From the IMG/VR virus record IMGVR_UViG_3300040959_000809: a stretch of DNA of 64,000 nucleotides. One strand, 5' to 3'. A model generated the notes under the pieces. The model was given only the letters and a program-made list of their open reading frames with translations, searched no databases and was not told the origin of the DNA. Origin of the DNA: a virus. Of the stretch, positions 3,352 through 28,170 are shown one piece after another (positions within the stretch are counted from its first letter, which is position 1; every line of letters begins with the position of its first letter). The position numbers were made by a program, and so were the translations under genes.

Positions 3352-3684
3352 TTATTTTTTGGCAGAATATGCATTCGCACCAAAGAATACTGATACCAAG
3401 GCAGAAATAGCAACAAAGTATGTTGGCGCAATATCACCCACAATACCTGCGGCTCCGTCTAGTCCTAGATAAGCTGTAAACATAATGGTAGCTGGATAGA
3501 GCAACATTCCAAACAATGCAAACCATGTCATTTTACGCATGGCATCCCTTTGAGCATCTTGATCTTCTAGTTCTCTCCGTTTGAATTCTAGATGCATGTT
3601 CATTTCTTCTTTTGAAATGTGTCCGTCACCGTTTGCGTCAACTCCTTCTACAGCATCCGCATCAATCGTTTTCTTTGCAGCCAT
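3352..3684 (-). CDS. EF-hand-containing two-TM membrane protein
   Basis: DANGDGHISKEE EF-hand loop then two hydrophobic helices; AAGGAGG SD on minus strand. Confidence 0.7.
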   Translation of the reverse strand: MAAKKTIDADAVEGVDANGDGHISKEEMNMHLEFKRRELEDQDAQRDAMRKMTWFALFGMLLYPATIMFTAYLGLDGAAGIVGDIAPTYFVAISALVSVFFGANAYSAKK

Positions 3685-3811: not shown

Positions 3812-3985
3812 ATGGAAATGTTTAAAAGATTCTATGAAATCACAGTCACATCTCCTGAAGGAAAACTTCTACATAAGTCAGAAGAATATTCTGGTTATTC
3901 AACATCTGAAGAACTAATGTATCTTGATAGAAAATATCCTGATTGTAAAGTTGAAGCTGAATTCAAAGAACTTCAAATCTCATAG
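3812..3985 (+). CDS. hypothetical early protein (57 aa, below track cutoff)
   Basis: Own translation MEMFKRFYEITVTSPEGK...; AAGGA SD. Confidence 0.55.
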   Translation: MEMFKRFYEITVTSPEGKLLHKSEEYSGYSTSEELMYLDRKYPDCKVEAEFKELQIS

Positions 3986-4075
3986 GAAAAAAATGAAAAT
4001 AAATGCAAATAAATGGTTGACATTTGCTATAGATGGTGTATATTAATACTATAAGGTGAAAACAAAGGAACTAAC
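3986..4075 (+). promoter_or_regulatory. early promoter plus leader cassette, near-identical to 63770-63857
   Basis: aaatgcaaataaatggTTGACAtttgct..gatggt.tatattaatactataaggtgaaaacaaaggaa shared by both copies. Confidence 0.85.
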
Positions 4076-4333
4076 ATGTCTATTCAGAAACTTATCGATC
4101 AAACTCACAGCTACTTTGTAGAAGCACAAGGTACAGACCTTGCTGATCTATATAAAGGTGATCTATCTGATTTCCAAGCAGTACAATGGATGATTAATTC
4201 GGATGACATTGATGATGCCGTCGCAAAAATCGATAATATGGATACGGAACCACGTGAGCAGATCATGTTGGCTATTGCGGATGAGTATGGTAATGGATAT
4301 GTAGAAACTGTAATAGGCTATGAGGTAGCATAA
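4076..4333 (+). CDS. hypothetical early protein, paralogue of a module in the 26392 polyprotein
   Basis: DF...M..S...V...D..DTEPRE....GN..V...G pattern shared with ORF 26392. Confidence 0.7.
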   Translation: MSIQKLIDQTHSYFVEAQGTDLADLYKGDLSDFQAVQWMINSDDIDDAVAKIDNMDTEPREQIMLAIADEYGNGYVETVIGYEVA

Positions 4334-4346
4334 ATTAAAATGATTA

Positions 4347-4423
4347 CTCGGTGTAGCGCAGTCTGGTAGCGCATTTGGTTTGGGACCAAAGGGTCGGGAG
4401 TTCGAATCTCTCCACCGAGACCA
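4347..4423 (+). tRNA. tRNA-Pro(UGG)
   Basis: CTCGGTG/CACCGAG acceptor stem, GCGC D-stem, TTTGG-TT(TGG)GA-CCAAA anticodon arm, TTCGAAT T-loop, encoded CCA. Confidence 0.97.
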
Positions 4424-4451: not shown

Positions 4452-4616
4452 ATGACTGAACTTATGACTGATATTGATGTTATTGAATCTGCATTAATCG
4501 CCTTTAACGAAGGTGCCAGCGATGAGAAATATGCGGCACTTTACTCTTTGGAAAAACTTCTGTTGGAAAAGAAGGACATGGTTGCAAAATTTGAAGCAAC
4601 TGCATGTGACTTATAG
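4452..4616 (+). CDS. hypothetical protein (54 aa)
   Basis: Own translation MTELMTDIDVIESALIAFNEGASDEKY...; GGAG SD. Confidence 0.5.
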   Translation: MTELMTDIDVIESALIAFNEGASDEKYAALYSLEKLLLEKKDMVAKFEATACDL

Positions 4617-4669
4617 GTCACATAATGATGTTATATATTGACTTTTGATGTATAACATCATAAATACTA

Positions 4670-4980
4670 TGTAATCGTTGATACGATTCAACGCATGGAC
4701 TGGACCGGGGGGCAATACCCCGCAGCTCCACCATAAACACACTGAGAACGTGCAAGCGTCAGTAAGTCTATAAAGGGTCGCAACCTTGAGCAACAGTGTG
4801 TTTTTGATGGGGCTGAACTAGGATCGACAGGTGTGTAGAGATGAGAGTAGATTACCGTGGTGGCTTACGACATTCGGCCAAACAAACTAAATGCAAACGA
4901 TAATGTTGCACCTTCAGGTTACGCACTAGCGGCATAAGCTGACGGGCTGGTCACTTGCCTCGGAACAGAAAAGTGACACT
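4670..4980 (+). ncRNA. ssrA: two-piece (circularly permuted) tmRNA; outer ends approximate
   Basis: T-arm/acceptor piece ...ccggggggcaataccccgcagctccACCA ends 4733, upstream of the GGGGCTGAA..GGATCGAC 5' end at 4809; tag frame 4893-4937 = ANDNVAPSGYALAA*. Confidence 0.93.
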
Positions 4981-4990
4981 TTATTCTAAT

Positions 4991-5021
4991 GACTCGTCAG
5001 TACTGACGGGTCTTTATTTTT
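4991..5021 (+). terminator. intrinsic terminator
   Basis: gactcgtcag-ta-ctgacgggtc hairpin followed by T-run. Confidence 0.75.
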
Positions 5022-5049
5022 CTTAATACACACAAGGAGATTTTCAAGG

Positions 5050-5835
5050 ATGAAAAATCTATTTTTAACTACAGCAGCGATGGCTTTGATGACCTCAGCT
5101 GCCTTTGCCGCAGATGTCACTGGTGAAATTCAATTGGACTTTACACAAAACGCAGCTGATGATATTGTTGCCAACCAAACACTAGAACTTGGTGTTGATG
5201 CAATGGCAGGAAATGCCGGCATTGGATTTGCAATGAACGGAGATACTGTAGAGGTTGATTCGTGGCATGTGGGAATGTCAACAGGAGATATTGCCTTCTC
5301 ATTTGGTGATCAGGGTGACTTGCTAGGTGACTTTGGTGGAATCACAGAAAACGCAGGCGGGACAACTTTGGCCAATCCAGCTGATGATGGTGAAAGTCTA
5401 ATCGCAAGTGCATATGGCGCAAGCATTATGGTTGGTCTTACTGATATGACAGCTGATGTGACTGACGTAAAAAATGTACAAGCTACATATGGCATGGATG
5501 CAGCCGGGATTGACATCGGTGTAGGTTTGGACTATAACCTAGATTCAGAGGAATTTATCTACATGGGCTTTGGCGGAGCAACTCGTTCCATCGCAGGTAC
5601 TGAGGCTAGCATCGGAACTACTTTTACTTATGGTGCCGAAACCTTTGCTTATGAAACAGATGTAACTGTATTTGGTGTTACAGGTTTTGTCAACGGCGAT
5701 GAAAACGACAGCTTACAAAATGTAGGTGGTGGTTACTACACCAATGTACAAGGTTTGGATGTGTATGCTGAAACTGCATATAACCTTGATAGCGAAGAGT
5801 GGACCCCATCCACGGGTGTTGCGTTCTCGTTCTAA
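5050..5835 (+). CDS. outer-membrane porin, alphaproteobacterial/Rhodobacter type
   Basis: Signal peptide ending AAFA; alternating beta-strand pattern, acidic; C-terminal Phe (GVAFSF). Confidence 0.7.
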   Translation: MKNLFLTTAAMALMTSAAFAADVTGEIQLDFTQNAADDIVANQTLELGVDAMAGNAGIGFAMNGDTVEVDSWHVGMSTGDIAFSFGDQGDLLGDFGGITENAGGTTLANPADDGESLIASAYGASIMVGLTDMTADVTDVKNVQATYGMDAAGIDIGVGLDYNLDSEEFIYMGFGGATRSIAGTEASIGTTFTYGAETFAYETDVTVFGVTGFVNGDENDSLQNVGGGYYTNVQGLDVYAETAYNLDSEEWTPSTGVAFSF

Positions 5836-5851
5836 AGAATAAATACACACA

Positions 5852-5879
5852 CAAGGTGGGCAGGATTCTTGCCCCCTTG
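5852..5879 (+). terminator. hairpin after porin
   Basis: caaggtgggcaggattcttgcccccttg inverted repeat. Confidence 0.55.
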
Positions 5880-5884
5880 TACCT

Positions 5885-5892
5885 TATAAATA
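5885..5892 (+). promoter_or_regulatory. T4-type late promoter
   Basis: Exact TATAAATA 64 nt upstream of hemO. Confidence 0.7.
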
Positions 5893-5955
5893 AGTTCAAA
5901 AGTTGCACGAGCGAACTTTGTAATTAACACTCACAATTTGGAGGAATTAGATTTT

Positions 5956-6573
5956 ATGGCAAACAACTTAAAAGAACTTACCTGGGAACATCACAAATCA
6001 GCAGAACGTACTGAATTTACTCAAATTTTGCTAGGTGGTGAAATTAGCCCAGAACTTTATCACAAATATCTTTGCAGCCAATTAATTTGTTATACTGCAC
6101 TTGAAGAGGCGGTGACATTGCCAACAGAATTTCAATCTGTATTCAGACAAACTGGATTAGAGGAAGATATTGCGGAATTAGAAAGCATTTATGGTATTGA
6201 ACCATGGGATGAACCTTTACCAGCGGTAATTGAATATGTTGAGCATATAGGTTATCTTGCGAAAAATAACGACAACAATGGTCTTTTGGCTCACCTATAT
6301 GTTCGCCATTTTGGTGATATGAGCGGTGGACAAATTATCAGAACCAAGGTTCCAGGCGATGGTACATTCTATGATTTTGATGACATTGATACATTAAAAT
6401 CTGGTATTAGAGAATTGTTGAATAATGATATGGCTGTAGAAGCTGGCATTTGTTTCCAATATGCTGAGCAAATGTTTGGTGAATTGCTGGATTGCACTCC
6501 ATATTATTTTAATACTGAATATGCAATGGCGGAAGGCTTACCATATGATGTCGCTGATGGTGAAGAAGAATAG
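5956..6573 (+). CDS. hemO: heme oxygenase
   Basis: LKELTWEHHKSAE proximal His; AHLYVRHFGDMSGGQII distal helix; start at 5956 after GGAGG. Confidence 0.92.
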   Translation: MANNLKELTWEHHKSAERTEFTQILLGGEISPELYHKYLCSQLICYTALEEAVTLPTEFQSVFRQTGLEEDIAELESIYGIEPWDEPLPAVIEYVEHIGYLAKNNDNNGLLAHLYVRHFGDMSGGQIIRTKVPGDGTFYDFDDIDTLKSGIRELLNNDMAVEAGICFQYAEQMFGELLDCTPYYFNTEYAMAEGLPYDVADGEEE

Positions 6574-6576
6574 CAT

Positions 6577-7254
6577 ATGGAAATAGTAAAAAAATTAAAT
6601 AAATTTACGGCCGACACAAAGACACTTTTTTCCAATAATATGGAAAGAACTATGCCCGATTATAGAGTCGAGCAATTCCCTGGATGGTCGGATCAGTTTT
6701 GGAAAAAGCCAGGATTGATTAGAAAATGTCATTTAAAAACAATAGATCTAATTGAAGAACGAAACCTTTGGCTTCTGCATATTAATATCTTTCCAGAGTT
6801 CGGGCTTGATTTGCCTATATTAGGATGTGATGTAGTTGCAGGGCCGAATAAAATTAGCGGTTCGTTCTTTGATTTCTCACCTATTATCAAACAACACCAT
6901 CCAATGATTAAGCACTTTGCAGAACAAACTGGTGGGGTGTCTTGGAAACGAGAAAGAAAATTGCCACCGTGGGCCACAAAAATCTTTTCAAACCATATGG
7001 TCGCTGCTGGTGCGGTTCGTAATGAAGAGGTGGATCAGTTCACACAGTTGACATATTCTCTTATGGAATACTATCTCTTACAGATGGAAACTCTTGCCGA
7101 GAATACTAAATTGGATACAAAGGCGGTCCAGAATAACTATTGCAAAAATCAGAAAAAGAATCCTAAGCTACACAGTTCAATTGCTGCAATGGGGATTCCA
7201 GAGCATAAGAAAGATTATTATGTAGATCGAATTCTTTTTGAAGAAATTGGTTGA
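6577..7254 (+). CDS. pcyX: ferredoxin-dependent bilin reductase (PcyX/PcyA type)
   Basis: WLLHINIFP, LPILGCDVVAG, DFSP, R.LPPWA.KIFS, QNNYCKNQKKNP motifs; adjacent to hemO. Confidence 0.85.
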   Translation: MEIVKKLNKFTADTKTLFSNNMERTMPDYRVEQFPGWSDQFWKKPGLIRKCHLKTIDLIEERNLWLLHINIFPEFGLDLPILGCDVVAGPNKISGSFFDFSPIIKQHHPMIKHFAEQTGGVSWKRERKLPPWATKIFSNHMVAAGAVRNEEVDQFTQLTYSLMEYYLLQMETLAENTKLDTKAVQNNYCKNQKKNPKLHSSIAAMGIPEHKKDYYVDRILFEEIG

Positions 7255-7279
7255 CATTTCTTATAGTACGTGATATAGT
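7251..7279 (+). promoter_or_regulatory. sigma70-type promoter for gp33-gp59-gp32
   Basis: TTGACA-N17-TATAGT. Confidence 0.75.
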
Positions 7280-7314
7280 AATAGTATTACCAATCAAATA
7301 GGAGATAGGTTTTT

Positions 7315-7551
7315 ATGGTCGTTACTATGACACCTGAAAAAATACATCATGCAATATCGACAATGGTTTCTCAAGGTGTTCCTTATATTGACGCGCTAGT
7401 GACATACGCAGAAAATAATGGACTTGAAATTGAAACTATTGCTGCTATAATAAAGAAATCCTCTATACTTAAGGAAAAAGTACGTTCAGAGGCAGTTCAG
7501 TTGAGAATGGTGAAAAAAGATGAAAATGACCTCACCGACATTTGCGAATGA
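7315..7551 (+). CDS. gp33: late transcription co-activator gp33
   Basis: YIDALVTYAENNGLEIETIAAII...LKEKVRSEA pattern; T4 33-59-32 synteny. Confidence 0.85.
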   Translation: MVVTMTPEKIHHAISTMVSQGVPYIDALVTYAENNGLEIETIAAIIKKSSILKEKVRSEAVQLRMVKKDENDLTDICE

Positions 7552-8122
7552 GGAATCATTCAGTGCTTATGTAAAATATCTTGCTTTTAAAAGACATTTT
7601 ACTACAGACTCGTATGATTATTTCAAATACAATGGAAAAGTTAGAGCTTCGATTGATTCGTTTCAGTCGAGAAATGATTCGTTTTTCTTTCTGAAACTGG
7701 CAAGAAAAGACGATTATGAAAATATAATTCTGGCTAATATGATTGAAAAGCCAGATATATGGGTACGTGATATACTGGAGCAGGAGGGACACAATCGCTA
7801 TATAAAATGGAAAAAAAGAATGGACTCGTTAGGATATATCTTCAAGAGTGATATAAATACTATGTTGGATGAATATGAAGATAATTTTGTAGTTCGTGAT
7901 GGGCAACACCCACATATAATGACTATGATGCTACAGAAAAAAATATCCTTAGAAACATTCACCATCATGACACACTTGGCAAATATTTTTCCTTATTGGG
8001 ACAAAAAAATTGTTGACAAAGTTGTGTCACGTGATATAATGAAAAAATCAAGGAAGTATAAACCTTTCTTGGATCTTGATTGGAATAGGTACAAGACATA
8101 TGTCAAAGATCAATTCCTTTAA
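7520..8122 (+). CDS. gp59: helicase loader gp59
   Basis: YLAFKRHFTTDSYDYFKYNGK; ISLETF motif; synteny. Confidence 0.9.
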   Translation: MKMTSPTFANEESFSAYVKYLAFKRHFTTDSYDYFKYNGKVRASIDSFQSRNDSFFFLKLARKDDYENIILANMIEKPDIWVRDILEQEGHNRYIKWKKRMDSLGYIFKSDINTMLDEYEDNFVVRDGQHPHIMTMMLQKKISLETFTIMTHLANIFPYWDKKIVDKVVSRDIMKKSRKYKPFLDLDWNRYKTYVKDQFL

Positions 8123-8179
8123 TGAAGATATAAACCGCAATAAAATACTATATAACGCAAAATTAGGAGAAATAAAACC

Positions 8180-9109
8180 ATGACTATGGATTTCAACGCA
8201 CTAAAAAAGAACCGTTCTTCGTCACTAGACAAACTGAACGCTCAACTCGATAAAATCACCACAAAATCTTACTCCGACCCGAACGAGGGTAAATTCTGGA
8301 AACCGACCCGTGATAAGGCCGGTAACGGTTTTGCAATTATTCGTTTCCTTCCACCTCCTCAAGGTGAGGAAATGCCATTCGTACGTATCTGGGATCACGG
8401 TTTCCAAGGACCTAACGGTCAATGGTACATTGAGAACTCACTGACAACTCTTGGTCAGGATGATCCAGTCTCCGAGTACAATTCCAAATTATGGAACTCT
8501 GGCCTGGAATCAGACAAGGACCTTGCACGTAAACAAAAACGTCGACTGAAATATGTGGCAAACATTTATGTGGTCAAGGATTCTGCTAACCCAGAAAACG
8601 ATGGTAAAGTATTCCTTTATCAGTTTGGTAAAAAAATCTTTGATAAACTCAATGATCTAATGAACCCATCATTTGAGGATGAGAAACCAGTCAACCCATT
8701 TGATCTATGGGAAGGTGCTAACTTCCGTCTGAAAATTCGTCAGTTCGAAGGTTATCCTAACTATGACAAATCAGAGTTTGATGGACCGACATCATTATTT
8801 GATGATGATGACAAACTAGAGGCTACTTGGAAATCTCAGCATTCTCTCCAGGAATTACTAGATCCTAAAAACTTCAAATCATATTCTGAACTCAAAACAA
8901 AATTGTACCGAGTTCTTGATCTTTCAGAAGATGCAGGACCAACTGCATCTAGTCGGATGGAAGAGTCCACTACGGACAATGATTTGGACTTGAGCAATAT
9001 GGGTAACACACAGGCTTCAGCTGAAGCCGCACCGGCACCCGTGAATATGTCCATGAACGATGACGATGATGACGATTTGTCAATCTTCAAAGAACTTGCA
9101 CGCTCATAA
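8180..9109 (+). CDS. gp32: single-stranded DNA binding protein gp32
   Basis: AGNGFAIIRFLP, WYIENSLTT, GKKIFDK, NYDKSEF, acidic C-tail. Confidence 0.96.
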   Translation: MTMDFNALKKNRSSSLDKLNAQLDKITTKSYSDPNEGKFWKPTRDKAGNGFAIIRFLPPPQGEEMPFVRIWDHGFQGPNGQWYIENSLTTLGQDDPVSEYNSKLWNSGLESDKDLARKQKRRLKYVANIYVVKDSANPENDGKVFLYQFGKKIFDKLNDLMNPSFEDEKPVNPFDLWEGANFRLKIRQFEGYPNYDKSEFDGPTSLFDDDDKLEATWKSQHSLQELLDPKNFKSYSELKTKLYRVLDLSEDAGPTASSRMEESTTDNDLDLSNMGNTQASAEAAPAPVNMSMNDDDDDDLSIFKELARS

Positions 9110-9123
9110 TTAAGTAATCACCT

Positions 9124-9157
9124 AAGAGGGCTCAAATAGTTGGGCCCTCTTATTTTT
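9124..9157 (+). terminator. intrinsic terminator after gp32
   Basis: aagagggc..gccctctt hairpin plus T-run. Confidence 0.8.
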
Positions 9158-9158
9158 A

Positions 9159-9452
9159 TTGGAGAAAAACATGTCAACAGTATCAGAAGATATTTTAGAT
9201 TTTGATTTTGGATTTACTGCAGTAGATGCTGATGAGCTTGAGGTTGTACGAACTGCAACTGAAAAATCAGAGGAACTATCTGCTCAGGTAGAATCCACAA
9301 GCGCAAAAGCAGAACTTGTTTATAATGCAATTATTCCACTTCTTAATAATCTAAAGGCAAATCCTGAAAAGGATTATATTTACTGGCCTAATCGCCACGA
9401 AAAGATTGATGCTTTTGCCGACAAGCTTTATGAAATTATGAATGGGAGTTAA
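9159..9452 (+). CDS. conserved T4-like hypothetical
   Basis: FDFGFT / PEKDYIYWPNR motifs; GGAG SD. Confidence 0.7.
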   Translation: MEKNMSTVSEDILDFDFGFTAVDADELEVVRTATEKSEELSAQVESTSAKAELVYNAIIPLLNNLKANPEKDYIYWPNRHEKIDAFADKLYEIMNGS

Positions 9453-9454
9453 CT

Positions 9455-10516
9455 ATGAGTCTACTAGACAAACTTGTCAAAAACAGCACAATTAAAATGA
9501 CGGCTCAACTTACTGAGTCGACGGTTTTTGGTAAAAAAGAAATGGCAACAACACCGGTCCCTATGGTGAATGTTGCCCTATCAGGTGATCCTGATGGTGG
9601 TTTAAGCCCAGGTTTGCTGGTGCTTGCTGGACCATCAAAACATTTTAAATCAGCATTTGCACTCTTAACTGCATCAGCATACATGAAAAAATATGACGAT
9701 GCGGTTTTGTTATTTTATGATTCAGAATTTGGAACACCTCAAGCCTATTTTGAAACATTTGGTATTGATATGGACCGTGTCGTGCATACACCAATTACTA
9801 ATGTTGAGGAACTTAAATTTGATATTAGTAATCAATTAGATCAGATTGAGAAAAAAGATCATGTAATTGTTATTATTGATTCTGTGGGTAACCTTGCCTC
9901 TAAGAAAGAGGTTGAGGATGCAATGAACGAAAAGAGTGTCGCCGATATGTCTCGGGCTAAGTCACTCAAATCATTGTTCCGTATTGTTACACCACATCTT
10001 AATCTTAAGGATATTCCACTCATTGCCGTAAACCACACATACCAAGAGATTGGCTTGTTCCCTAAGGCAATCGTTTCAGGCGGCACAGGGATTTATTACT
10101 CAGCAGATGCCATTTGGATTATTGGTCGCCAACAGGACAAGGTTGGTACGGAAATTCAAGGTTATCATTTTGTAATTAATATTGAAAAATCTCGCCATGT
10201 AAAAGAGAAATCCAAGATCCCAATTTCAGTATCCTGGGAAGGTGGTATCGTCAAATGGTCAGGTCTTATGGATGTGGCCGAAAAAGGTGGATACCTTCGT
10301 AAACCAAAAGTTGGTTGGTATGAAGCGGTGGATCCCTCCACTGGTGAAATTATATCAGACAAACTAATGAGAGCAAAAGATGTAAATAATAATGAAGAGT
10401 TCTGGCAGATGATGTTTGCAAAAACTGATTTTAAAGAATATATTAGAAAATTATTTACAATAGGTGCCTCGGGCAGTATCATGGGTGAAGATGATATTGT
10501 TGAGGTTGTTGAATAA
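9455..10516 (+). CDS. uvsX: UvsX RecA-like recombinase
   Basis: AGPSKHFKS Walker A, DSEFG, IIDSVGNLASKKE, SGGTG. Confidence 0.96.
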   Translation: MSLLDKLVKNSTIKMTAQLTESTVFGKKEMATTPVPMVNVALSGDPDGGLSPGLLVLAGPSKHFKSAFALLTASAYMKKYDDAVLLFYDSEFGTPQAYFETFGIDMDRVVHTPITNVEELKFDISNQLDQIEKKDHVIVIIDSVGNLASKKEVEDAMNEKSVADMSRAKSLKSLFRIVTPHLNLKDIPLIAVNHTYQEIGLFPKAIVSGGTGIYYSADAIWIIGRQQDKVGTEIQGYHFVINIEKSRHVKEKSKIPISVSWEGGIVKWSGLMDVAEKGGYLRKPKVGWYEAVDPSTGEIISDKLMRAKDVNNNEEFWQMMFAKTDFKEYIRKLFTIGASGSIMGEDDIVEVVE

Positions 10517-10521
10517 ACCTG

Positions 10522-10550
10522 TTGACTTTTCCTATAATTAATGATATTAT
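10522..10550 (+). promoter_or_regulatory. sigma70-type promoter for gp41
   Basis: TTGACT-N17-TATTAT. Confidence 0.7.
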
Positions 10551-10616
10551 AGGTACTATAAAACAAACCGGTGGTGGCTTTTGTCACCACCTATCTTTTT
10601 ATAATATAGGGACAAC

Positions 10617-12056
10617 ATGCTAGAAAAGTCTATTTTATCAAATTTAATCTTCAACGAGGAATATTACCGAAAGGTTTATCCTTATGTAAAGGGCGAGTAT
10701 TTTGACGACTCGAACCATGAGCGTATTTTTTCTACCTTTAGTGAATATGTAGAAAATTACAAGGAGGCTCCTTCGATTGAGGCTCTTAAATTATCACTTG
10801 ACAAACGTAAGGATCTCAACGAAGACTCATATAAAAATGTAATGTCTGCGGTTGATGACTTTCGTGTTGATGAGGAAACAAATACTGAGTTCCTTATTGA
10901 TGAAACAGAAAAATTCTGTCAAGATAAAGATCTCTATAATTCAATCCGCAAGGCTATTCTTATTCTGGATGGTGAGGATAAGCAAAACGATAAGGGATCC
11001 ATTCCTAAAATCTTATCGGATTCTCTAGGTATTACATTTGACCAAAGTGTGGGTCATGATTTTCTTGAGGATTATGAAGGACGATACGAATATTATCACA
11101 AAAAAGAAGAGCGGCTGCCATTTGATATTGATCTTTTAAACAAGGTTACCAAGGGTGGCTTACCTCGTAAATCAATGACAGTTCTGTTGGCAACAACCGG
11201 TGGTGGTAAATCTTTGGTAAAATGTCACATGGCTGCAAATTATTTGATGTACGGTAAGAATGTCTTATATATAACCATGGAGCTTGCTGAGGAAGAGGTT
11301 GGTCGTCGAATTGATGCCAACATTATGGATGTTACTCTGGATGAGGTTTCAATTACACCACGTGATGTTTTTGAAAAACGAATGAACAGATACAGATCCA
11401 AGACTCCTGGTAAACTCATTGTCAAGGAATATCCAACTGGTTCTGCTCACGTAGGACATTTCCGACATCTATTAAACGAATTGGAAATGAAAAAAGGCTT
11501 TAAGCCGGATGTGGTCTTTGTTGACTATATTAACATCTGCGCGTCTGCACGGGTCAAAGGTGCGGCCGCAGCAAACTCTTACACACTTGTCAAATCTATT
11601 GCGGAGGAAATTCGTGGTCTGGCTATGGAATTTAATTGTGCCGTTGTTACTAGTTCTCAGTTTAATAGGGACGGTTACGGCAACTCTGATGTTGATCTCA
11701 CCAACACCTCTGAGTCTATGGGTATTACTCACACTGCTGATTGTATCCTTGGACTTATAACGTCGGAAGACCTAGACAGTCTAGGCCAGTTGATGTTCAA
11801 ACAACTTAAAAATCGTTGGGGCGATTTAGGATATTATCGTAGATTCCTTGTAGGCATTGAACGTGCCAAAATGAAAATCTATGATCTTGAGGAATCAGCC
11901 CAACAAAACGTACAAAATACTGATGGTAATAATCAATCGGCATCAAACAATGATACCCCTTCGTTTGATAAGACCTCATTTGGTCAGGTTGTTACCATGA
12001 ACAGTAGAGGCAAAAGTCGTAAAAATGTATTCGAGGACATGGAAGGATTCAAATAA
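10617..12056 (+). CDS. gp41: replicative DNA helicase gp41
   Basis: ATTGGGKSL Walker A, YITMEL, IVKEYPT, VDYINIC, SQFNR, QLKNR. Confidence 0.96.
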   Translation: MLEKSILSNLIFNEEYYRKVYPYVKGEYFDDSNHERIFSTFSEYVENYKEAPSIEALKLSLDKRKDLNEDSYKNVMSAVDDFRVDEETNTEFLIDETEKFCQDKDLYNSIRKAILILDGEDKQNDKGSIPKILSDSLGITFDQSVGHDFLEDYEGRYEYYHKKEERLPFDIDLLNKVTKGGLPRKSMTVLLATTGGGKSLVKCHMAANYLMYGKNVLYITMELAEEEVGRRIDANIMDVTLDEVSITPRDVFEKRMNRYRSKTPGKLIVKEYPTGSAHVGHFRHLLNELEMKKGFKPDVVFVDYINICASARVKGAAAANSYTLVKSIAEEIRGLAMEFNCAVVTSSQFNRDGYGNSDVDLTNTSESMGITHTADCILGLITSEDLDSLGQLMFKQLKNRWGDLGYYRRFLVGIERAKMKIYDLEESAQQNVQNTDGNNQSASNNDTPSFDKTSFGQVVTMNSRGKSRKNVFEDMEGFK

Positions 12057-12260
12057 ATGAAATACGAAATAGCATTATCACGGACCGGGGTATACGGAAT
12101 TTTGGAGAACACATCTGGTACTTTTATAAATATGTCAAACACCAAAAAAAGTACCATAGAGTCAGTCTGTGATAATTTAAACTGGGGCACTGGGTTTCAA
12201 GGACATACCCCCAATTTTATTGCTAACTTTTCTCCTTTGGTAAGAACAAAAAGAGAATGA
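12057..12260 (+). CDS. hypothetical protein
   Basis: 67-aa ORF abutting gp41 stop; GTGFQGHTPNF. Confidence 0.6.
   Translation: MKYEIALSRTGVYGILENTSGTFINMSNTKKSTIESVCDNLNWGTGFQGHTPNFIANFSPLVRTKRE
12125..12132 (+). promoter_or_regulatory. T4-type late promoter
   Basis: Exact TATAAATA upstream of the 12265-16514 block. Confidence 0.6.
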
Positions 12261-12264
12261 AAAA

Positions 12265-13707
12265 ATGCCTCGTAATTTTAGAAACTATTTAAATGAAGCT
12301 TCTATATTAAAACCTGATTATGTAGAAGGGCATAAATTTGCCTGGAACGGTAAAGGTGTAAAGGAATTTGAAACCGCCGGTTATAAGCGCAATAATATAT
12401 TTACTGTAGTTACTGGTTCAGAAGGTGCTGTACTCATTGGAAGCCAAGATGCTGAGAATGAAAAATACCTACAAGGACCTGACGGAAAGGTATGGCACTT
12501 TAAAGGTGGTCTAAGTTTTAAGGCATCTTCTTTTACCCATGTTAAGGAATCTGGTGGGACACCCAGTGGCGCCGAATGGGAAAACCTTATTGTATTTGCC
12601 TATAATAATCTTAAAGGTACTGCTACAGATGAGGAAACAAAGGAAGTTGCTCTCAAATATTGGGAGCGTTATGGTAATATTTCGGATGAAATTGCTAAAA
12701 ACTTTGATACCAATCTTAAGGCAAAGCAGTTAGTACAAACAGGGCGTGGTTTGGGTAATGTCAAACTTGGAAAGTTTTGGAAAGCAGCTGGTGCGACAAA
12801 CAAGACACCAAAAACTGATATCGCATCATCTAATTTTGTGGAAAAGATTTCACTTAAAAAAGGTGGTGGATCTCAGCTCATTTCAGCAGAGAAAAAAGAA
12901 GCACTTGCAATCGTCAATGCTGCCCTATACGAAATGGGTGGTAACGCACCATTTGCCAAAAAGTTAACTAAGGCTATTGAAGATAAAATGACCAGACTTG
13001 TTACAACTGAGGCGGTCACAACCCTACAGAAACGCTCAATGATGGGTGATAAGGACGCTGGTGTGATTGATTATCAGAAAAAGGATAATGATCATAAGGA
13101 ATTGTCTGCAATGCTCAAGGAGGCCATTAGAGGGGCATCCGAAAGCAATAACTTATTCGCTCGACATATTGTACTAGAGGCAGCCACTGGTAATAATAAA
13201 TTTGGTGGTGCCAATTCAAAGGCAGCCGCAAATGTTTTAGGAAAATTTGATATTAGAACATTTGAGGTGGTTGTACAACCCATTTCATCTATTGATGATC
13301 CTATTATTATAGAGTATGCACAAAAGGTACGGCCATATGTTGCATTTAAAAAAGGTTCAGCGGGTTCTGCTGCTTATTCGGCAATGCGGATGGGTTTATC
13401 CGAAGGCTATACATTCCAAAAACTAGTCACCGAAGAACTTTCAAACATTCAAGGTTTCTATCTTACAGAGGATATTCTAAACGAAGGTCCTATGGGTATG
13501 CTTAGACGTGCTGGCACATTTGCCAAACGTGCAGGTGCCGCAGCTAAAAAAGCATTGGATGCAGCAGTTAAAAAGATCATTTTAAAATTAAAAAAGGTAT
13601 TTGCAGCCATTGCCAAAAAAGGTAAAAACATGATGGCAGCCCTTATGAAGTTCTTAGGGGTTGAGGTAAGTACTGCATCAGGAATTCCAGCAGAGGTAGG
13701 TCTATAA
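12265..13707 (+). CDS. putative capsid-packaged PD-(D/E)xK-fold nuclease-like protein
   Basis: Leader MPRNFRNYLNE; AEWE ... PKTD ... ISLKK restriction-fold-like triad. Confidence 0.6.
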   Translation: MPRNFRNYLNEASILKPDYVEGHKFAWNGKGVKEFETAGYKRNNIFTVVTGSEGAVLIGSQDAENEKYLQGPDGKVWHFKGGLSFKASSFTHVKESGGTPSGAEWENLIVFAYNNLKGTATDEETKEVALKYWERYGNISDEIAKNFDTNLKAKQLVQTGRGLGNVKLGKFWKAAGATNKTPKTDIASSNFVEKISLKKGGGSQLISAEKKEALAIVNAALYEMGGNAPFAKKLTKAIEDKMTRLVTTEAVTTLQKRSMMGDKDAGVIDYQKKDNDHKELSAMLKEAIRGASESNNLFARHIVLEAATGNNKFGGANSKAAANVLGKFDIRTFEVVVQPISSIDDPIIIEYAQKVRPYVAFKKGSAGSAAYSAMRMGLSEGYTFQKLVTEELSNIQGFYLTEDILNEGPMGMLRRAGTFAKRAGAAAKKALDAAVKKIILKLKKVFAAIAKKGKNMMAALMKFLGVEVSTASGIPAEVGL

Positions 13708-14960
13708 TGAAAAGATTTAAAAACTATATTGCAGAGGAGGTCCTTACAGAGGATAAGAATTTGCATATGACGCACCTTGAGGATGCGGTCCTTGATGGGG
13801 GTGTGGTTGGTACTCGGAATGTTATTAACTATCTTCGTGCATTGAGAGACATGTTAGGTGGCAACACCAAGGCACCAGTAAATGTCTCTGTAAAATGGGA
13901 TGGGGCACCGGCAATTTTTGCTGGGAAAGATCCATCCGATGGCAAATTCTTTATTGCCAAAAAAGGTGTTTTTAATAAGAATCCCAAAATATATAAAACA
14001 GAAGCTGAAATTGACAATGATATATCAGGTGACCTTGCGTCAAAGTTTAAGGTTGCTTTAAAAGAGTTTAGTAAGCTCGGCATTGAAGGAGTGGTACAGG
14101 GTGATTTCCTATATACGAATGATGATTTACAAACGACGGCTATTGATGGAGAATCGTATATTACTTTCCATCCTAATACGATTGTTTACGCGGTACCAAC
14201 AAAAAGCAAACTTGCAAAAACAATTTCAGGATCCTCGATCGGCGTGGTCTTCCATACAACATACCGAGGAGATTCATTTGAAACAATGTCAGCAAGTTTT
14301 GGAAAGGAGATTGTACCTTCTCTCAAAAAAGTCAAATCGGTCTGGGCGGTAGATGCAGTATTTGAAGATAAGTCGGGCAATGCCACATTTACAGCTGCAG
14401 AGACAAAAGCATTAAATTCTATTCTAACCAAGGTAGGCACACTGTTCAGAACAATTAAAAAGGAAACCCTAAACGGTCTTTCAAAGGCAAATAATGAGGA
14501 ACTTAATACACGCGTAAATGTATATGTAAATCAAAAGGTCCGAGCTGGAGAACGTATTGGAAACCCTAAACAGTTTGTGGCTGGTCTCACAAAATACATC
14601 AATGACTATTACGGCAAAGAGGCAGATAAAAAGAAAACCCAGCGCGGTAAAGACACACAGACCGCAAAGCGTGACTCGGCTCTAGCCTATTTTGCAAACA
14701 ATAATAAAAAAGAAATAGAACGCTTATTTGAAATGTATAACCTATTAGTTGATGCTAAACTTATGGTTATTTCAAAATTAAACCATGTCGATGGTCTACA
14801 AACATTTCTTAAAACCAATAAAGGTTTTGAGGTTACTGGACAGGAAGGCTTTGTCGCCATTGATCATATGGGTAAAAATTCACTTAAACTTGTAGATAGA
14901 CTACAATTTAGTAAGGCGAACTTTAGTACAGAATATATTAAAGGCTGGGAGAAAAAGTAA
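13707..14960 (+). CDS. putative capsid-packaged RNA-ligase-like nucleotidyltransferase
   Basis: Leader MKRFKNYIAE; KWDG (motif I), QGDFL (III), EGFV (IV), KLVD (V). Confidence 0.65.
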   Translation: MKRFKNYIAEEVLTEDKNLHMTHLEDAVLDGGVVGTRNVINYLRALRDMLGGNTKAPVNVSVKWDGAPAIFAGKDPSDGKFFIAKKGVFNKNPKIYKTEAEIDNDISGDLASKFKVALKEFSKLGIEGVVQGDFLYTNDDLQTTAIDGESYITFHPNTIVYAVPTKSKLAKTISGSSIGVVFHTTYRGDSFETMSASFGKEIVPSLKKVKSVWAVDAVFEDKSGNATFTAAETKALNSILTKVGTLFRTIKKETLNGLSKANNEELNTRVNVYVNQKVRAGERIGNPKQFVAGLTKYINDYYGKEADKKKTQRGKDTQTAKRDSALAYFANNNKKEIERLFEMYNLLVDAKLMVISKLNHVDGLQTFLKTNKGFEVTGQEGFVAIDHMGKNSLKLVDRLQFSKANFSTEYIKGWEKK

Positions 14961-15190
14961 TGGCTTGGGTAGCAGTACCAGGATCTAATGGAATTTGGGA
15001 ATATGATAATGCGGCCAGCACAGCTGATGCTGATACATATGATGATGCAAATGGTACTGTTACTGGAGGAATTAGATCATTTACACCTCCGGGCGGTTCT
15101 GCTCAATTCACCTATATCAAGACAAGAAAAGTAGGTGAGACAATCGTTCGCGGAGAACTCAATAAAAACTATTATGACGGCAAAATTTAA
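14960..15190 (+). CDS. hypothetical protein
   Basis: 76-aa coupled ORF. Confidence 0.6.
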   Translation: MAWVAVPGSNGIWEYDNAASTADADTYDDANGTVTGGIRSFTPPGGSAQFTYIKTRKVGETIVRGELNKNYYDGKI

Positions 15191-15206
15191 GAGATAGGTA
15201 AGAGCA

Positions 15207-16514
15207 ATGGCACAATTTAACAAAGATACAGGTGAATTTCTCAATAATAATAAAACACTATATGAAGTTGTTATGGTTGCTGGCCAAGCCGGGCCCTCAA
15301 CATATGTTAATACAGGCAATCTAAACACATCTTCTGATTCTTTTGGCAGAATGAGAGTCTCAGAACCACTTACTTTGTTTGATAGTAGTCATAGATACGC
15401 CGACAATGGACTTTTTTCAGAGAGCATAACAGGAACGGCATCATCAACATTTAACGGTGATGCAGGACTTATTGACTTAGATGTTGGTTCAAGTTCCGGT
15501 GATGAAATTCTCAGAGAAACCAATAAGACATTTGCATATCAGCCCGGCAAAAGTCTATTGATTCTTTCAAGTTTTATGCTTGCTGCAGCAAAAACTAATC
15601 TAAGACAGCGAGTTGGTTATTTTGGTTCTGAAAATGGTATCTTCTTAGAACAAGACGACAGTAATATATTAGTGGTATTGCGAAGTAAAGTAACTGGTAG
15701 TGTAGTTGACACAAAAATTGCAAAGGCAAACTGGAACGTTGACTCGTTAGATGGTACAGGCCCAAGTGGAGTGACTTTAGATTTGACTAAGGTTCAACTT
15801 ATGTGGTTGGACGTTGAGTGGCTTGGTGTTGGTAGTGTGCGTTTTGGTTTTGTGGTCAATGGACAGTTTATTCCATGTCATGTATTCCATCATGCAAATT
15901 TAATTGATTCCACATACATGACAACTGCATCTCTACCATTAAGACAAGAACTTACAAATACTGGTGCAACTTCTGGTGCAAGTCAGGCAAAACAAATTTG
16001 TAGCACTGTTATTAGTGAAGGTGGATATGAACTAAGAGGTAGACAACACGCCATTGGAACTCCAATTACCAGTGCATATCAATTGGCCGATGCCGGAACA
16101 TATTATCCTGTAGTTTCAATTAGACTGAAATCTGCAAGACAAGATGCAATTGTTATTTTGACTGCATTGTCTCTATTGGGGGTTGGTAATGGTGTAAACT
16201 TCTCATGGAAAATTGTTGCAGGCGGAACAGTGACAACAGCTTCTTGGACAAGTGCTGGTTCCGATTCTTCAGTCGAATACACCTTATCTGGAACTGCGCA
16301 TGATGGCGGTGGTAGAGTTCTTGCACAGGGGTATTTGAATTCCTCTAATCAAGGTTCGCCCACAATGGATATTCTAAAAGAGGCACTATTCAAGTTTCAG
16401 TTAGAGAGAAATTCATTTGCTGATGTTATGGAACCACTCTCGTTTTTGGTTGCTCCGGCAACTGATGATGAAGATATTTTTGCCTCGCTGGATTGGGAAG
16501 AGGTTACACGATAA
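15207..16514 (+). CDS. probable virion structural protein (beta-rich)
   Basis: 435 aa, Ser/Thr/Gly-rich; DSFGRMRVS, YQPGKS, WLGVGSVRFG; position in late block. Confidence 0.6.
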   Translation: MAQFNKDTGEFLNNNKTLYEVVMVAGQAGPSTYVNTGNLNTSSDSFGRMRVSEPLTLFDSSHRYADNGLFSESITGTASSTFNGDAGLIDLDVGSSSGDEILRETNKTFAYQPGKSLLILSSFMLAAAKTNLRQRVGYFGSENGIFLEQDDSNILVVLRSKVTGSVVDTKIAKANWNVDSLDGTGPSGVTLDLTKVQLMWLDVEWLGVGSVRFGFVVNGQFIPCHVFHHANLIDSTYMTTASLPLRQELTNTGATSGASQAKQICSTVISEGGYELRGRQHAIGTPITSAYQLADAGTYYPVVSIRLKSARQDAIVILTALSLLGVGNGVNFSWKIVAGGTVTTASWTSAGSDSSVEYTLSGTAHDGGGRVLAQGYLNSSNQGSPTMDILKEALFKFQLERNSFADVMEPLSFLVAPATDDEDIFASLDWEEVTR

Positions 16515-16532
16515 TTTATTATAGGTTATATT

Positions 16533-17246
16533 ATGAAAAATTTAATTTATCAGTATTACAGTAGTCCAGATAAAGATCGAGTGAAAAAAGATAGGCCCGG
16601 TGTATATATAAATGCCGGTAATTATCACGAGTACTCTAAACAATCCATATCAGCATATGCCAAAAAGCATGGTGTTTTATATAAATTTATGGACCACAAA
16701 TTACCTGACGACATCCCTTTATTCTATGGTATTTTTCTACCATTTCTAGAGGGCTGGTGTTGGGATTATGATAATATTTGTTTTATTGATAGTGATATTA
16801 TGGCTACCGTAAATAGTGGAAATGTATTCGACTATGCTGGCAAACAAGGTCTTACATTACATAAAATGGATGCTTCAAAACATCGATTTGATTCCAAGCG
16901 AGCATTTAAATTCTTTAATGAAATTAACGGCTTCTTTAATAGTGGTGTAGTGATCTTTCCAAGATCCGAATATGAAAATTTCATACATTTTGCATCCACA
17001 TTAAAACAAAGAGACTTAAACAGAACCTCTGTCGAGAATAGTCTTGGCGGTTTTGATCAAGGTTTATTAAATACCTGGATAGCAAATCATAAACGCTATA
17101 ACGAATTGCCAAAGCAATATAATTATCATATGGGTAGATATCAAAAGCCCGAAAGATGGTACGATGGCGTGAGCCTAATACACTACCATCGAGAGGACAA
17201 AGCATTAATGGAACCAGAGTTTCAGGATGAGAGAATACTTAAATGA
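16533..17246 (+). CDS. GT-A fold glycosyltransferase (GT8-like)
   Basis: FIDSD DxD motif, FNSGVV, DQGLLN, YNY...IHY. Confidence 0.8.
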   Translation: MKNLIYQYYSSPDKDRVKKDRPGVYINAGNYHEYSKQSISAYAKKHGVLYKFMDHKLPDDIPLFYGIFLPFLEGWCWDYDNICFIDSDIMATVNSGNVFDYAGKQGLTLHKMDASKHRFDSKRAFKFFNEINGFFNSGVVIFPRSEYENFIHFASTLKQRDLNRTSVENSLGGFDQGLLNTWIANHKRYNELPKQYNYHMGRYQKPERWYDGVSLIHYHREDKALMEPEFQDERILK

Positions 17247-17824
17247 TGGGTGATTTAAAATTTACAACTTGTGGGGATTTTATGCAAGAGCAAGATACTT
17301 ATATTGACCAGTATAAAGAATTTTACAATAACGGCGGTTACGAAAATAATGATCCCGTGATGAGAGCAAAAGATGACATTAAAAAGATGCTAAAAAAGTT
17401 CGACTGTAAATCATTATTAGATTATGGATGTGGACATGGACTACAATATTCTCAGCACAAATTAGATCAGTATTGGGATATTAAAAAACTTACGAAATAT
17501 GATCCAGGTGTACAAGAATTTGAAATAAAGCCTACTGGGACATTTGATGCAGTCATTAATACTGATGTTTTAGAGCATATTCCTGAGGATTATGTATATG
17601 ATGTGATTGCAGACATTTTTAGTTATGCTGGTAAGTTTGTATACTTTAGTATTGCCACAGATCTGGCAAAGGCAGTATTACCGAACGGGGAAAACGCTCA
17701 TTGCACATTAAAACCACATTCTGAATGGGTTACCATTATTGATGAAATGCGTGGGGATATTCCTACATTGGTAAAATGTACTGGCCGTAATCGCTCAAAG
17801 ATAGGGAGCACGTTACTGGAATGA
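17243..17824 (+). CDS. class I SAM-dependent methyltransferase
   Basis: LLDYGCGHG, YDP, DVLEHIP, NAH. Confidence 0.85.
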   Translation: MMGDLKFTTCGDFMQEQDTYIDQYKEFYNNGGYENNDPVMRAKDDIKKMLKKFDCKSLLDYGCGHGLQYSQHKLDQYWDIKKLTKYDPGVQEFEIKPTGTFDAVINTDVLEHIPEDYVYDVIADIFSYAGKFVYFSIATDLAKAVLPNGENAHCTLKPHSEWVTIIDEMRGDIPTLVKCTGRNRSKIGSTLLE

Positions 17825-18339
17825 TTAGAAAGGTTATACTCATTGGTAATGGTCCGTCAAGTAAATTTTATTCACAATTAAATCATTTAGATGGCGGAAT
17901 GACAGCTGGGTTTAACCTTACTGAACACAATGTAGATATTATTTTTGTAAGCGATAAAAAAGTTATTAATAAACTTGAAGGCAATCCAAAGGTACATGTA
18001 TTAAAAAAGCCTTTCATGACAAAAAAAGGTGGGCTTAATCTTGCATGGAATACAGGCCATAATGCATATAACTACCTAAGAAAAATGGGTTATACTCATT
18101 TTGAAATGTATGGTTTTGATTTGCTCTTTTCAGACAATTGGAGTTCGTCGACAGATCGAGTATTTAATAAGGATCTGTGGGTTCAACAGGCGATTGAGGT
18201 TGACATTAATAACGAATGGATTCAATACTGGAATGAGATAATTGACACACCTACAATCATTCATGCTCCTGTCGGGGCAAAACTTTATGTAAACTCTAAA
18301 CATGCACAAATAGAACACCATGAAAACTTTAATTATTAG
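17821..18339 (+). CDS. GNGPS-motif protein (sialyltransferase/Maf-like fold)
   Basis: VILIGNGPSS N-terminal motif, MYGFD. Confidence 0.45.
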   Translation: MIRKVILIGNGPSSKFYSQLNHLDGGMTAGFNLTEHNVDIIFVSDKKVINKLEGNPKVHVLKKPFMTKKGGLNLAWNTGHNAYNYLRKMGYTHFEMYGFDLLFSDNWSSSTDRVFNKDLWVQQAIEVDINNEWIQYWNEIIDTPTIIHAPVGAKLYVNSKHAQIEHHENFNY

Positions 18340-18868
18340 TATGCCTAAATCAGGCACATATCTATGTAGTAATTTACTTTTAGAGTTTGGAATCAGACAA
18401 ACCTTACTACATTTAAACACAGGTACCTACCAGCAATATACATCTGATATAAACGATACCAGAAAAAATCCCCAAAAATACACACACCAGTTGAACTTTG
18501 AAAAGTCAATAGAGTTATTTGGTGATAATGAGTTTGCGGTCACCCACGTACCATATAATAAGAAAAGAGCTCAATTGCTGAAGAACACAAAGAAAATACT
18601 TTTGGTGAGAGACGAAAAGGAAATTGTAGAATCATATCAAAGATGGAATGAAAAAACTGATAGACCTATGCCAGCGTTAAATTTAGGTGATATAAAGAGA
18701 TGGGAGCAAGAAACTAATATTTTTAAGCTTTCATTTAATGATATGATAAATAAAAATGTAGAACAGATTGATAGGTTACAGAACTATCTTTTTAATAGTA
18801 TAAAGTTTGATAGTCTGATGTGTATTAAGAATGCAATTGAATTGCCATCAATGACAAAAATGAGGTAA
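18320..18868 (+). CDS. sulfotransferase-like protein
   Basis: SMPKSGTYL PAPS-binding loop, LLVRD. Confidence 0.6.
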   Translation: MKTLIISMPKSGTYLCSNLLLEFGIRQTLLHLNTGTYQQYTSDINDTRKNPQKYTHQLNFEKSIELFGDNEFAVTHVPYNKKRAQLLKNTKKILLVRDEKEIVESYQRWNEKTDRPMPALNLGDIKRWEQETNIFKLSFNDMINKNVEQIDRLQNYLFNSIKFDSLMCIKNAIELPSMTKMR

Positions 18869-18872
18869 TATT

Positions 18873-23736: not shown

Positions 23737-23738
23737 AA

Positions 23739-26344: not shown

Positions 26345-26352
26345 TATAAATA
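26345..26352 (+). promoter_or_regulatory. T4-type late promoter
   Basis: Exact TATAAATA 40 nt before the 26392 start. Confidence 0.8.
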
Positions 26353-26391: not shown

Positions 26392-28170
26392 ATGGCTTTT
26401 ACAGACAGAATTAAACAGTTAATGTCGTCTCATCTCGAGGCGGAACTAATGGAAGGTCTGAAACACGACCGTTATATGCGTGCTCACGGTAAAAAAGCTA
26501 AAGGCACCGCAACATGGATGTTTACCACCAAAAAAGATGGTGAAGTAAACTACGATAACGATAAGGAAGTTTTCCAATCCGGTCCATCTATGAAACTTGC
26601 AGATGCTGCCAAAAAAGCAATGGATGCTCTTAAATCAAAAACAATTTATGTAATGGAAGCTAAATTAGATCCAGTTGGCAAAGAAGATGATGATGTGGAC
26701 AATGACGGTGATGTAGATAAATCCGATAAGTATCTTAAAAAGCGCCGGGCCGCAATCAAAAAGGCTATTAATACAAAACCAGCAATGAAAGAGGCAGCTA
26801 AAAAGCAAAAAGCAAAACTACTGCCCGTCAAAGGTTCTGTAGATGATGCAAATGATGTGGCACAAAAGGCAACTGGCGAATCTGTTAATGAAGCGGCAAC
26901 ACCTCAAATGATGAAAGCCGCAAAAGAACTTGAAATGTACGCAAAGAAACACGGTGGGATTGATAAAACAGACTTTATGAAAGCCTCAAAGATGTTGGCA
27001 TCCGGTAAAGCCGGAACAAACCTTGTTAAATTTGTAGACGGACTTGACACAGATCCTCGTGAAAAGGTTATTACAGTTATGGGAACCCACATGGGTAATA
27101 AAACTGTTGGAAAAATGTTTGGTGTTAACATCCGTGAAGAAGTAGAATTAGACGAAGATCGTAGAACGGAACTTAGTCATCAATCAATGATGTTTACTCA
27201 TGCAATGAAACAAGCTGAATTTAAAAAGAAAGATCCGAGACTCGCAAAACAGCATGATATGGCTGGCAAGTTGCATGCTAAAGCGGCAGATATGCACGCT
27301 GATAACCATCCAGATGCAAAAAAGCATTCAGATAAAGCAAATAAAGCATCAAAGCTATTAGGCGAAGAAGTAGAACTTGATGAAACTTTATCACCATCTG
27401 AAAAGAAACTTGTCAATCAAATGTATGATAAGAAAGGTAACCTGACACCACTTGGTAAAAAGGTTATGAACCACGGTAAAAAGCCTGGTGATAACATCCG
27501 TGAGGAAACTGAACAGCTTGATGAATCAACTCAAATGATGGAAAATCTAGCTGATGCGATTGATAATACAGATTTGGCTAAACTCACAGTAGAAGAGTTA
27601 TCTGAAATCGAAGAAGGTATTATTAAGGCGCTAGGTGTTGCCGCCAAAAAGACTGTAGGTGGTGTCGCTAAGGGTGTAGGTGCTGTCGCTAAGGGTGTTG
27701 GTAAGGCAGCTAAATCCGCAGTCATTAATAAACAAGGTAATATCCGTGGTACACAAGCGGCTAAAACTGACGCACAGACTAACAAGGCTAATAAAATTGC
27801 TGATAAATTGCAACGAAATAAAGATGCGGCCGATAGATTAAAAGCGGCTCAGGACAGAATTAAATCTCTTTCCTCTAAGCCTAAGAAACCATTAGCGGCA
27901 AGTTATAATGAGGACCTAAACGAAATCGGAAGTAACTTTGAAACAAAACCGAATGAAAAGAAACTTGCTGACCTAGGCCGTAAAATGATGGATATGGGTC
28001 AAAAGGAAAAGAATGATACTCTTTCAAATGCATATGCCAGACTTGGTGACGCGTTGACAAGATATGGTACCACATTTGGTGCCAGAAATATAAAAGATTT
28101 GGAAAAGAAAACTGGCATGAAACAAGCCATTATTATGGATCTTATGAAAAGAGCTGCGAAGCATAAGTAA
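26392..28170 (+). CDS. putative polyprotein of about 9 modules separated by prohead-protease-type linkers
   Basis: Linkers ELME, YVME, SVNE, NIREEVELDE, GEEVELDE, NIREETEQLDE, EIEE, DLNE. Confidence 0.75.
   Translation: MAFTDRIKQLMSSHLEAELMEGLKHDRYMRAHGKKAKGTATWMFTTKKDGEVNYDNDKEVFQSGPSMKLADAAKKAMDALKSKTIYVMEAKLDPVGKEDDDVDNDGDVDKSDKYLKKRRAAIKKAINTKPAMKEAAKKQKAKLLPVKGSVDDANDVAQKATGESVNEAATPQMMKAAKELEMYAKKHGGIDKTDFMKASKMLASGKAGTNLVKFVDGLDTDPREKVITVMGTHMGNKTVGKMFGVNIREEVELDEDRRTELSHQSMMFTHAMKQAEFKKKDPRLAKQHDMAGKLHAKAADMHADNHPDAKKHSDKANKASKLLGEEVELDETLSPSEKKLVNQMYDKKGNLTPLGKKVMNHGKKPGDNIREETEQLDESTQMMENLADAIDNTDLAKLTVEELSEIEEGIIKALGVAAKKTVGGVAKGVGAVAKGVGKAAKSAVINKQGNIRGTQAAKTDAQTNKANKIADKLQRNKDAADRLKAAQDRIKSLSSKPKKPLAASYNEDLNEIGSNFETKPNEKKLADLGRKMMDMGQKEKNDTLSNAYARLGDALTRYGTTFGARNIKDLEKKTGMKQAIIMDLMKRAAKHK

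Follow-up and report, generated by a model that had tools for sequence, protein, structure and literature searches.

A small five-helix domain with two oppositely charged forms in a marine T4-like phage: a free-standing early-type protein and a module of a late multi-module protein

Introduction

Does a small early-type gene of a marine T4-like phage encode the same domain as one module of a much larger late protein, and do the two copies serve one function? Few viruses of the sea are as abundant as marine T4-like phages, and to our knowledge the contents of their heads are almost unstudied. The stretch of DNA analysed here (the window, 64 kb) is part of the genome of an uncultured marine T4-like myovirus. 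A preliminary description of this DNA had claimed that ORF4076, a free-standing early gene, is a paralogue of one segment of the polyprotein encoded by ORF26392. It had further proposed that such segments are independent proteins, and that one function is supplied both pre-made from the capsid and by early transcription, as expected for a host-takeover or anti-defence effector. We evaluated these claims using sequence comparison, profile searches and structure prediction.

Results

The locus and its surroundings

Almost every gene in the window lies on the + strand, and a search of the phage GenBank collection returned nothing closely related at the DNA level. The features of the two loci and the landmark genes of the window are collected in Table 1.

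Table 1. Positions of the features at the two loci and of landmark genes in the window
Feature	Position	Strand	Remarks
Sigma70-type promoter-like site, TTGACA-N16-TATATT	4017..4044	+	11/12 consensus match; 32 nt 5' of the ORF4076 ATG
Near-identical sigma70-type promoter copies	782, 3758, 4017, 53154, 57161, 59571, 63798 (also 8013)		
Shine-Dalgarno-like AAGGA	4065..4069	+	6 nt 5' of the ATG; read from sequence
ORF4076, free-standing acidic five-helix protein, DxxDF...MDTxPRE family	4076..4333	+	85 aa; net charge -14; pI 4.05
tRNA-Pro(TGG)	4347..4423	+	about 13-14 nt past the ORF4076 stop
gp32-type SSB	8180		window gene
UvsX	9455		window gene
gp41-type helicase	10617		window gene
Virion protein	15207		59% identity with the cyanophage S-RIM12 counterpart
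T4-type late promoter motif TATAAATA	26345..26352	+	about 40 nt 5' of the ORF26392 start
ORF26392, late multi-module protein with EEVELDE-type linkers, module carrier	26392..28170	+	592 aa
V-N-E, a (V/L/M)-x-E motif	26884..26892	+	directly 5' of the module; proposed cut after E167
Basic five-helix module, YAKKxGGIDKxDF...LDTDPRE	26893..27138	+	residues 168-249; C-terminal I-R-E; core +6; pI 9.8
Acidic linker E-V-E-L-D-E, second L-x-E motif	27139..27156	+	directly 3' of the module
Endolysin	31376		window gene
Primase	34323		window gene
NrdA / NrdB	36101 / 38427		window genes

No terminator-like site was found in the stretch from ORF4076 to the tRNA-Pro gene, and the two probably belong to one transcription unit. 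Directly 5' of ORF4076 lies a 57-aa ORF (3812-3985) that has its own early promoter copy and no family match. Minus-strand genes are very few in the window; the product of one of them (3352-3684) has 110 aa, contains an EF-hand loop (DANGDGHISKEE) and is hydrophobic in its C-terminal half. Four other phage loci (L088-L091) have a homologue of this gene, which lies a few kb downstream of that of ORF4076. The phage genes also include one for an enzyme with the class I/II aminotransferase fold (40378-41571; PF00155, 230 bits).

The tRNA-Pro gene is adjoined by a tmRNA of the permuted alphaproteobacterial type (4607-5028; RF01849, 103.6 bits; RF04321, 111.6 bits) with the tag peptide ANDNVAPSGYALAA, and this permuted type hints at an alphaproteobacterial host. 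The nearest genome, G001, is a 5.1-Mb bacterial assembly (98% complete), in which contigs C88 and C78 (L116-L118) are 97% identical to window positions 4670-20000. The early promoter sequence is also present several times in this assembly. The contigs are of phage origin, either binned with that bacterium or infecting it. A homologue of ORF4076 was not found in G001, where the matching contig stops at the tmRNA.

We also surveyed the relatives of each form. When 1.84 billion representatives were scanned in full with HMMER, the relatives of ORF4076 fell into 44 representative clusters. Almost all of them stand alone and are 64-133 aa long, with MDTxPRE and a C-terminal LGYEV in common. Four long proteins in which many short repeated stretches matched (P0051, P0058, P0063 and P0078) were left out of the free-standing family. 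The IMG/VR scan used the single ORF4076 sequence as its query, the free-standing alignment having no conserved 7-mer. The homologues are surrounded by small-gene clusters of early type, which adjoin PhoH, T4-type DsbA, thymidylate synthase and nucleotide-metabolism genes, or tRNAs. The conserved neighbours of the free-standing gene, i.e. a glycine-zipper protein, an EF-hand membrane protein and tRNAs, gave no functional clue.

With residues 150-260 of ORF26392 as the query, 35 proteins of 327-997 aa were recovered, in which the corresponding stretch of about 85 aa lies amid quite different neighbours. IMG/VR contributed 96 more module instances, and 80 loci were retained. The carriers are 193-1254 aa long and the module lies at positions 41 to 884 in them, P0031 has two module copies, and in the homologues of ORF26392 modules are added, dropped and reshuffled. 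A stand-alone module of 50-161 aa was looked for and none was found; the module is always embedded. At five loci (L030, L031, L039, L043 and L055) a short form of the module stops after DTDPRDxxxxxM-GEEVE(I/L)DE and is without the last helix, so that the linker motif directly follows helix 4. Elsewhere in ORF26392 (window 26392-26810, residues 33-140), a conserved DPVGKEDDDVDNDGDVDKSDKYLKKRR motif with a calcium-loop-like DxDxDG is shared with many carriers and matches PHROGs 4359, 3326, 38880 and 22379.

ORF4076 and the module as paralogues

The earlier alignment had matched ORF4076 with ORF26392 at about 26970-27125. In BLASTP we observed the same relationship, residues 29-84 of ORF4076 aligning with residues 191-247 of ORF26392 (nt 26962-27132). 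The two are identical at 16 of 57 positions (28%), and the score was 33.1 bits with an E of 5e-7 for the pair. Searched against the 191 window ORFs of at least 50 aa, the match had an E of 2.2e-4, with the next match at 0.06 or weaker. It was the sole significant paralogous match of either large late protein among these 191 ORFs.

Profile comparison, which the preliminary description had named as a check, gave a much stronger signal. When 39 free-standing homologues were compared with 28 modules in HHalign, the probability was 98.4% (E 5.2e-15), and with an independent and more diverse set of 30 modules the probability was 98.2% in local and 97.8% in global alignment (77 columns). HMMs built without the window sequences found the window counterpart reciprocally and as a unique match (E 4.4e-11 and 4.4e-9, the next best matches being at 0.3 and 0.0075, respectively). 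In five further phage records, the module HMM also recognised the free-standing gene. In the global alignment, ORF4076 is covered from residue 1 to the last and the module from residue 7 to its closing I-R-E, which indicates that the whole of ORF4076 corresponds to one whole module. Since each form has 85-95% identity with its orthologues elsewhere and the two window copies share only 28%, the split must be old and not a recent duplication.

The two proteins were then compared at the level of predicted structure. AlphaFold2 predicted five helices for ORF4076 (3-16, 22-41, 45-53, 57-71 and 73-80; pLDDT 95.2) and five for the isolated module (8-24, 26-40, 46-53, 57-71 and 73-80; pLDDT 83.7). The predicted five-helix layout is common to both, with helices 3-5 at equal residue numbers.

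Chance resemblance between two helical, compositionally biased sequences could draw on the modest single-pair score and on a single-sequence search of 1.8 billion proteins with ORF4076 that did not reach the modules, but the profile-profile probabilities of 98% with two independent module sets, the reciprocal and unique HMM matches with the window sequences left out, the cross-detection in five other phage records and the identical predicted helix layout make it extremely improbable and, as far as computation goes, exclude it. The claim of paralogy was thus borne out by BLASTP, HHalign and the reciprocal HMM matches, and on this computed evidence ORF4076 and the module are ancient paralogues.

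Neither form could be placed in a known family. ORF4076 matched no family in Pfam-A and PHROGs, and the module region had no match in Pfam or PHROGs either, the PHROG matches of ORF26392 spanning residues 33-186, nearly all of which precede the module. Neither ORF4076 nor ORF26392 was matched beyond noise in the phage GenBank collection, at the DNA or protein level. Both models were used for fold searches, with Foldseek in PDB and BFVD and with VIA-align in a set of 48,161 chains; nothing specific emerged, the best scores being Z 7.1, for a designed helical bundle, and Z 5.0, and ESM Atlas yielded no usable match.

Two weak resemblances to known folds came up, and neither was adopted. The secretoglobin/uteroglobin fold was matched by the module profile at E 2e-4 in tandem-uteroglobin constructs, but single domains scored only E 2-3; the free-standing profile reached E 0.13, and uteroglobin was absent from the fold-search lists. 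The 8-kDa helix-hairpin-helix domain of Pol X was found with both models at Z 4.2-4.8 (2w9m, 9cq3, 6go3 and 6h5h), a range that is common for helical bundles, and had no sequence support.

Two forms of opposite charge

When we examined the composition of the two families, we observed that they differ in charge. The free-standing family is acidic (mean net charge -8.6, median pI 4.4), with the window copy at -14, whereas the module core is basic (mean net charge +3.1, median pI 9.4), with the window copy at +6.

The two families have nine signature positions in common, each kept at 60-100%: D29, D32, F33, M/L55, D56, T57, P59, R60 and E/D61 (ORF4076 numbering). All but two are polar or charged. 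The residues DF and DT.PRE, listed earlier as shared between the two window copies, turned out to be exactly columns conserved across both families. The free-standing family has no counterpart to the module-invariant YAKKxGGIDK, to the GG hairpin or to further lysines of the module; the lysines K22, K23, K29, K34 and K50 are invariant in the module and missing from the free-standing family.

The charge inversion (-14 versus +6), together with the missing invariant lysines and GG hairpin, suggests different partners or roles. The inversion in itself suggests that the two forms are not simply redundant.

Module boundaries and candidate head-targeting starts

T4 gp21 cleaves after Glu, at sites such as ITE, LTE and LIE (PMC5694885, PMC9026906). 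In the window, the module is preceded by V-N-E followed by A and ends in I-R-E, with L-D-E in the linker behind it; the (I/L)-x-E type is thus present as a sequence motif. Among 30 module instances, the upstream boundary has a hydrophobic P3 (V/L/M/I/F) in 25, Glu at P1 in 28, and Ala, Ser or Gly at P1' in 25. This motif is kept although the modules before it are unrelated. The long form of the module ends in I-R-E, often followed by E-V-E-L-D-E. The boundary motifs are, as far as can be read from sequence, of the kind that the T4 gp21 prohead protease cuts, and we regard them as putative cleavage sites.

A gp21-family prohead protease is not encoded in the 64-kb window, which stops short of that region. 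However, a protease of this family (PF03420) is present in three related phage records, G003, G007 and G008, at 126-132 bits.

These observations bear on the earlier proposal that the polyprotein segments are independent units. For the module this proposal is supported: it is predicted to fold alone in AlphaFold2, its position varies among carriers, it is bounded by a conserved (V/L/M)-x-E followed by A, S or G, and the free-standing protein has equal boundaries.

The capsid-targeting tag of T4 is MKTYQEFIAE. The targeting sequence comprises the N-terminal 10 residues, with an aromatic residue at positions 4 and 7, I or L at 8 and E at 10 (PMC9026906). ORF26392 starts with MAFTDRIKQLMSSHLEAE (MAFTDRIKQ...) and its orthologues with MAFKDRIKE; the window protein has F3 and I7 and no E at 9 or 10, and is only loosely capsid-targeting-like. 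Other module carriers begin with MKKFSQIISE, MKSFKNHIEE, MKRFKHYVEE or MKNFNRFLKE. Window genes at 23242-26087 begin with MNSFKDHLAE, MQNFKSFISE, MKRFKHYISE, MNSFKTYILE and MKKFKQHLHE. The N-terminus of ORF4076 (MSIQKLIDQT) is without the T4 capsid-targeting pattern.

Promoters and co-occurrence of the two forms

The window has ten sigma70-type sites compared to 2.4 expected, and none of 100 shuffles reached ten. About eight near-identical promoter copies (TTGACATTTGCT...GATGGTRTATATT) each lie about 30 nt 5' of a small + strand ORF, and the extended sequence of the site at 4017 also precedes the ORFs at 840, 3812, 53211, 57222 and 59637. This promoter family would serve as a ready-made map of early transcription units. 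At the loci of free-standing homologues, sigma70-like elements were seen upstream in 14 out of 15 and TATAAATA in none, and the complete 221-kb genome G007 has an equal promoter arrangement at its free-standing gene.

The late motif found ahead of ORF26392 was also observed at -14 to -48 of 11 of the 34 distinct module-carrying ORFs in other phages. Over the whole window it occurs 11 times (6.5 expected), an enrichment that is not significant.

Both forms are present in the window phage and in G007. G008 (91% complete) has the module only, and G003 (77% complete) has the free-standing gene only, so that the two forms do not appear to be an obligate pair, as judged from these incomplete records.

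Discussion

A new family of small domains can be recognised by the signature DxxDF...DTxPRE; its two forms are unlike in charge, in context and in the type of promoter. The reading that we favour, which we consider an even call, is that a single small domain comes as a basic version, which would travel in the head, and as an acidic version, which would be made early, and that their core contact is probably common. The late multi-module protein would be loaded into the prohead and cut into modules, and the basic module would then be with the DNA in the head and enter the cell alongside it. The acidic copy would be produced within minutes from the injected DNA by the host RNA polymerase. The two versions would act at different times and places, as do the injected Alt and the early ModA and ModB of T4. 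As both versions keep D-x-x-D-F ... M/L-D-T-x-P-R-E/D, they most likely make an equal core contact with a host or phage partner; the shared signature may also be purely structural, e.g. a helix cap with a salt bridge. The role of host-takeover or anti-defence effector proposed earlier is a guess, for which no clue came from fold, family or neighbours.

The promoter motifs fit the earlier claim of supply both early and late, with a sigma70-type site at ORF4076 and TATAAATA at ORF26392. That one function is supplied twice fits less well, considering the opposite charge, the 28% identity and the fact that the forms are not always together. The same three observations speak for a doubtful but possible alternative, in which a stable helical scaffold was reused for diverged roles and ancestry is the only link. 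In that case the basic module, like the internal proteins of T4, would fill the head in association with the DNA or neutralise charge, and the acidic early protein would do something unrelated. The lysines that are invariant in the module and absent from the free-standing family also point this way, and the internal proteins of T4 are themselves basic and touch DNA via lysines (PMC3012670). However, nine mostly polar or charged positions are kept at 60-100% in both families, which is beyond the needs of a bare scaffold, and both forms are confined to one group of T4-like marine phages.

The equal predicted fold and complementary net charge, and the early-type promoter of the acidic copy, would also suit an antagonist, with the acidic early protein pairing with the injected or newly made basic module and switching it off or chaperoning it after phage expression begins. 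We consider this unlikely; phages with only one form exist, although their records are incomplete. A related version appears improbable, in which the injected basic domain acts first and its acidic early paralogue binds it or competes for its partner and switches it off; two charge-inverted copies of one new fold would then make up a built-in timer for an injected effector.

The pair independently supports the view that the beads of late multi-module proteins are stand-alone proteins, since the equal domain with equal boundaries exists as a separate gene. If, as in the reading we favour, injection of the head form is followed by the early form, the pair would join T4 Alt with ModA and ModB as a second case of one activity supplied by two routes, and could be used to look for the host target. 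Should the two forms instead oppose each other, a new regulatory principle would be at work. No description of a charge-inverted early twin of a head-precursor bead was found in the literature searched.

Among known systems, giant phages provide one comparison. In phiKZ and SPN3US, the ejection or inner-body proteins undergo multiple cuts after Glu per head protein by a gp21-related protease (PMC5694885, PMC9026906). However, these cuts mostly remove long propeptides and are not known to free a string of shuffled independent domains, and for the ejection proteins of giant phages no early free-standing paralogue has been described.

A second comparison is with the internal proteins of T4. IPI, IPII and IPIII, which are processed by gp21 and ejected, are small, basic and diverse; a 10-residue N-terminal tag serves to load them, and cuts after Glu set them free (PMC9026906, PMC3012670). 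One of them, IPI, acts against restriction. Like them, the module is basic and bounded by cut-type motifs, and the neighbouring genes and many of the carriers in relatives have T4-like tags. In contrast, the T4 proteins are encoded by single genes, each with its own tag, whereas here many modules share one ORF and the tag fit of ORF26392 is loose. No sequence or fold similarity exists between IPI-III and the module.

The closest comparison is with the ADP-ribosyltransferases of T4. Alt is an injected head protein, and its paralogues ModA and ModB are expressed early (PMC2988021). The head-borne paralogue is delivered with the DNA after processing by gp21 at (I/L)-x-E, and the others are made early via the host RNA polymerase (PMC2988021, PMC5694885). 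The promoters and motifs of the window pair form an analogous pattern. The proteins themselves differ: the Alt and Mod enzymes have 200-680 aa and known targets, while here we have an 85-aa helical domain without a catalytic signature. Unlike Alt, the putative head copy forms a single bead in a multi-module protein, and its charge is opposite to that of the early copy. The arrangement resembles a known T4 principle, with the twist that a bead of a multi-module head precursor has a charge-inverted early twin.
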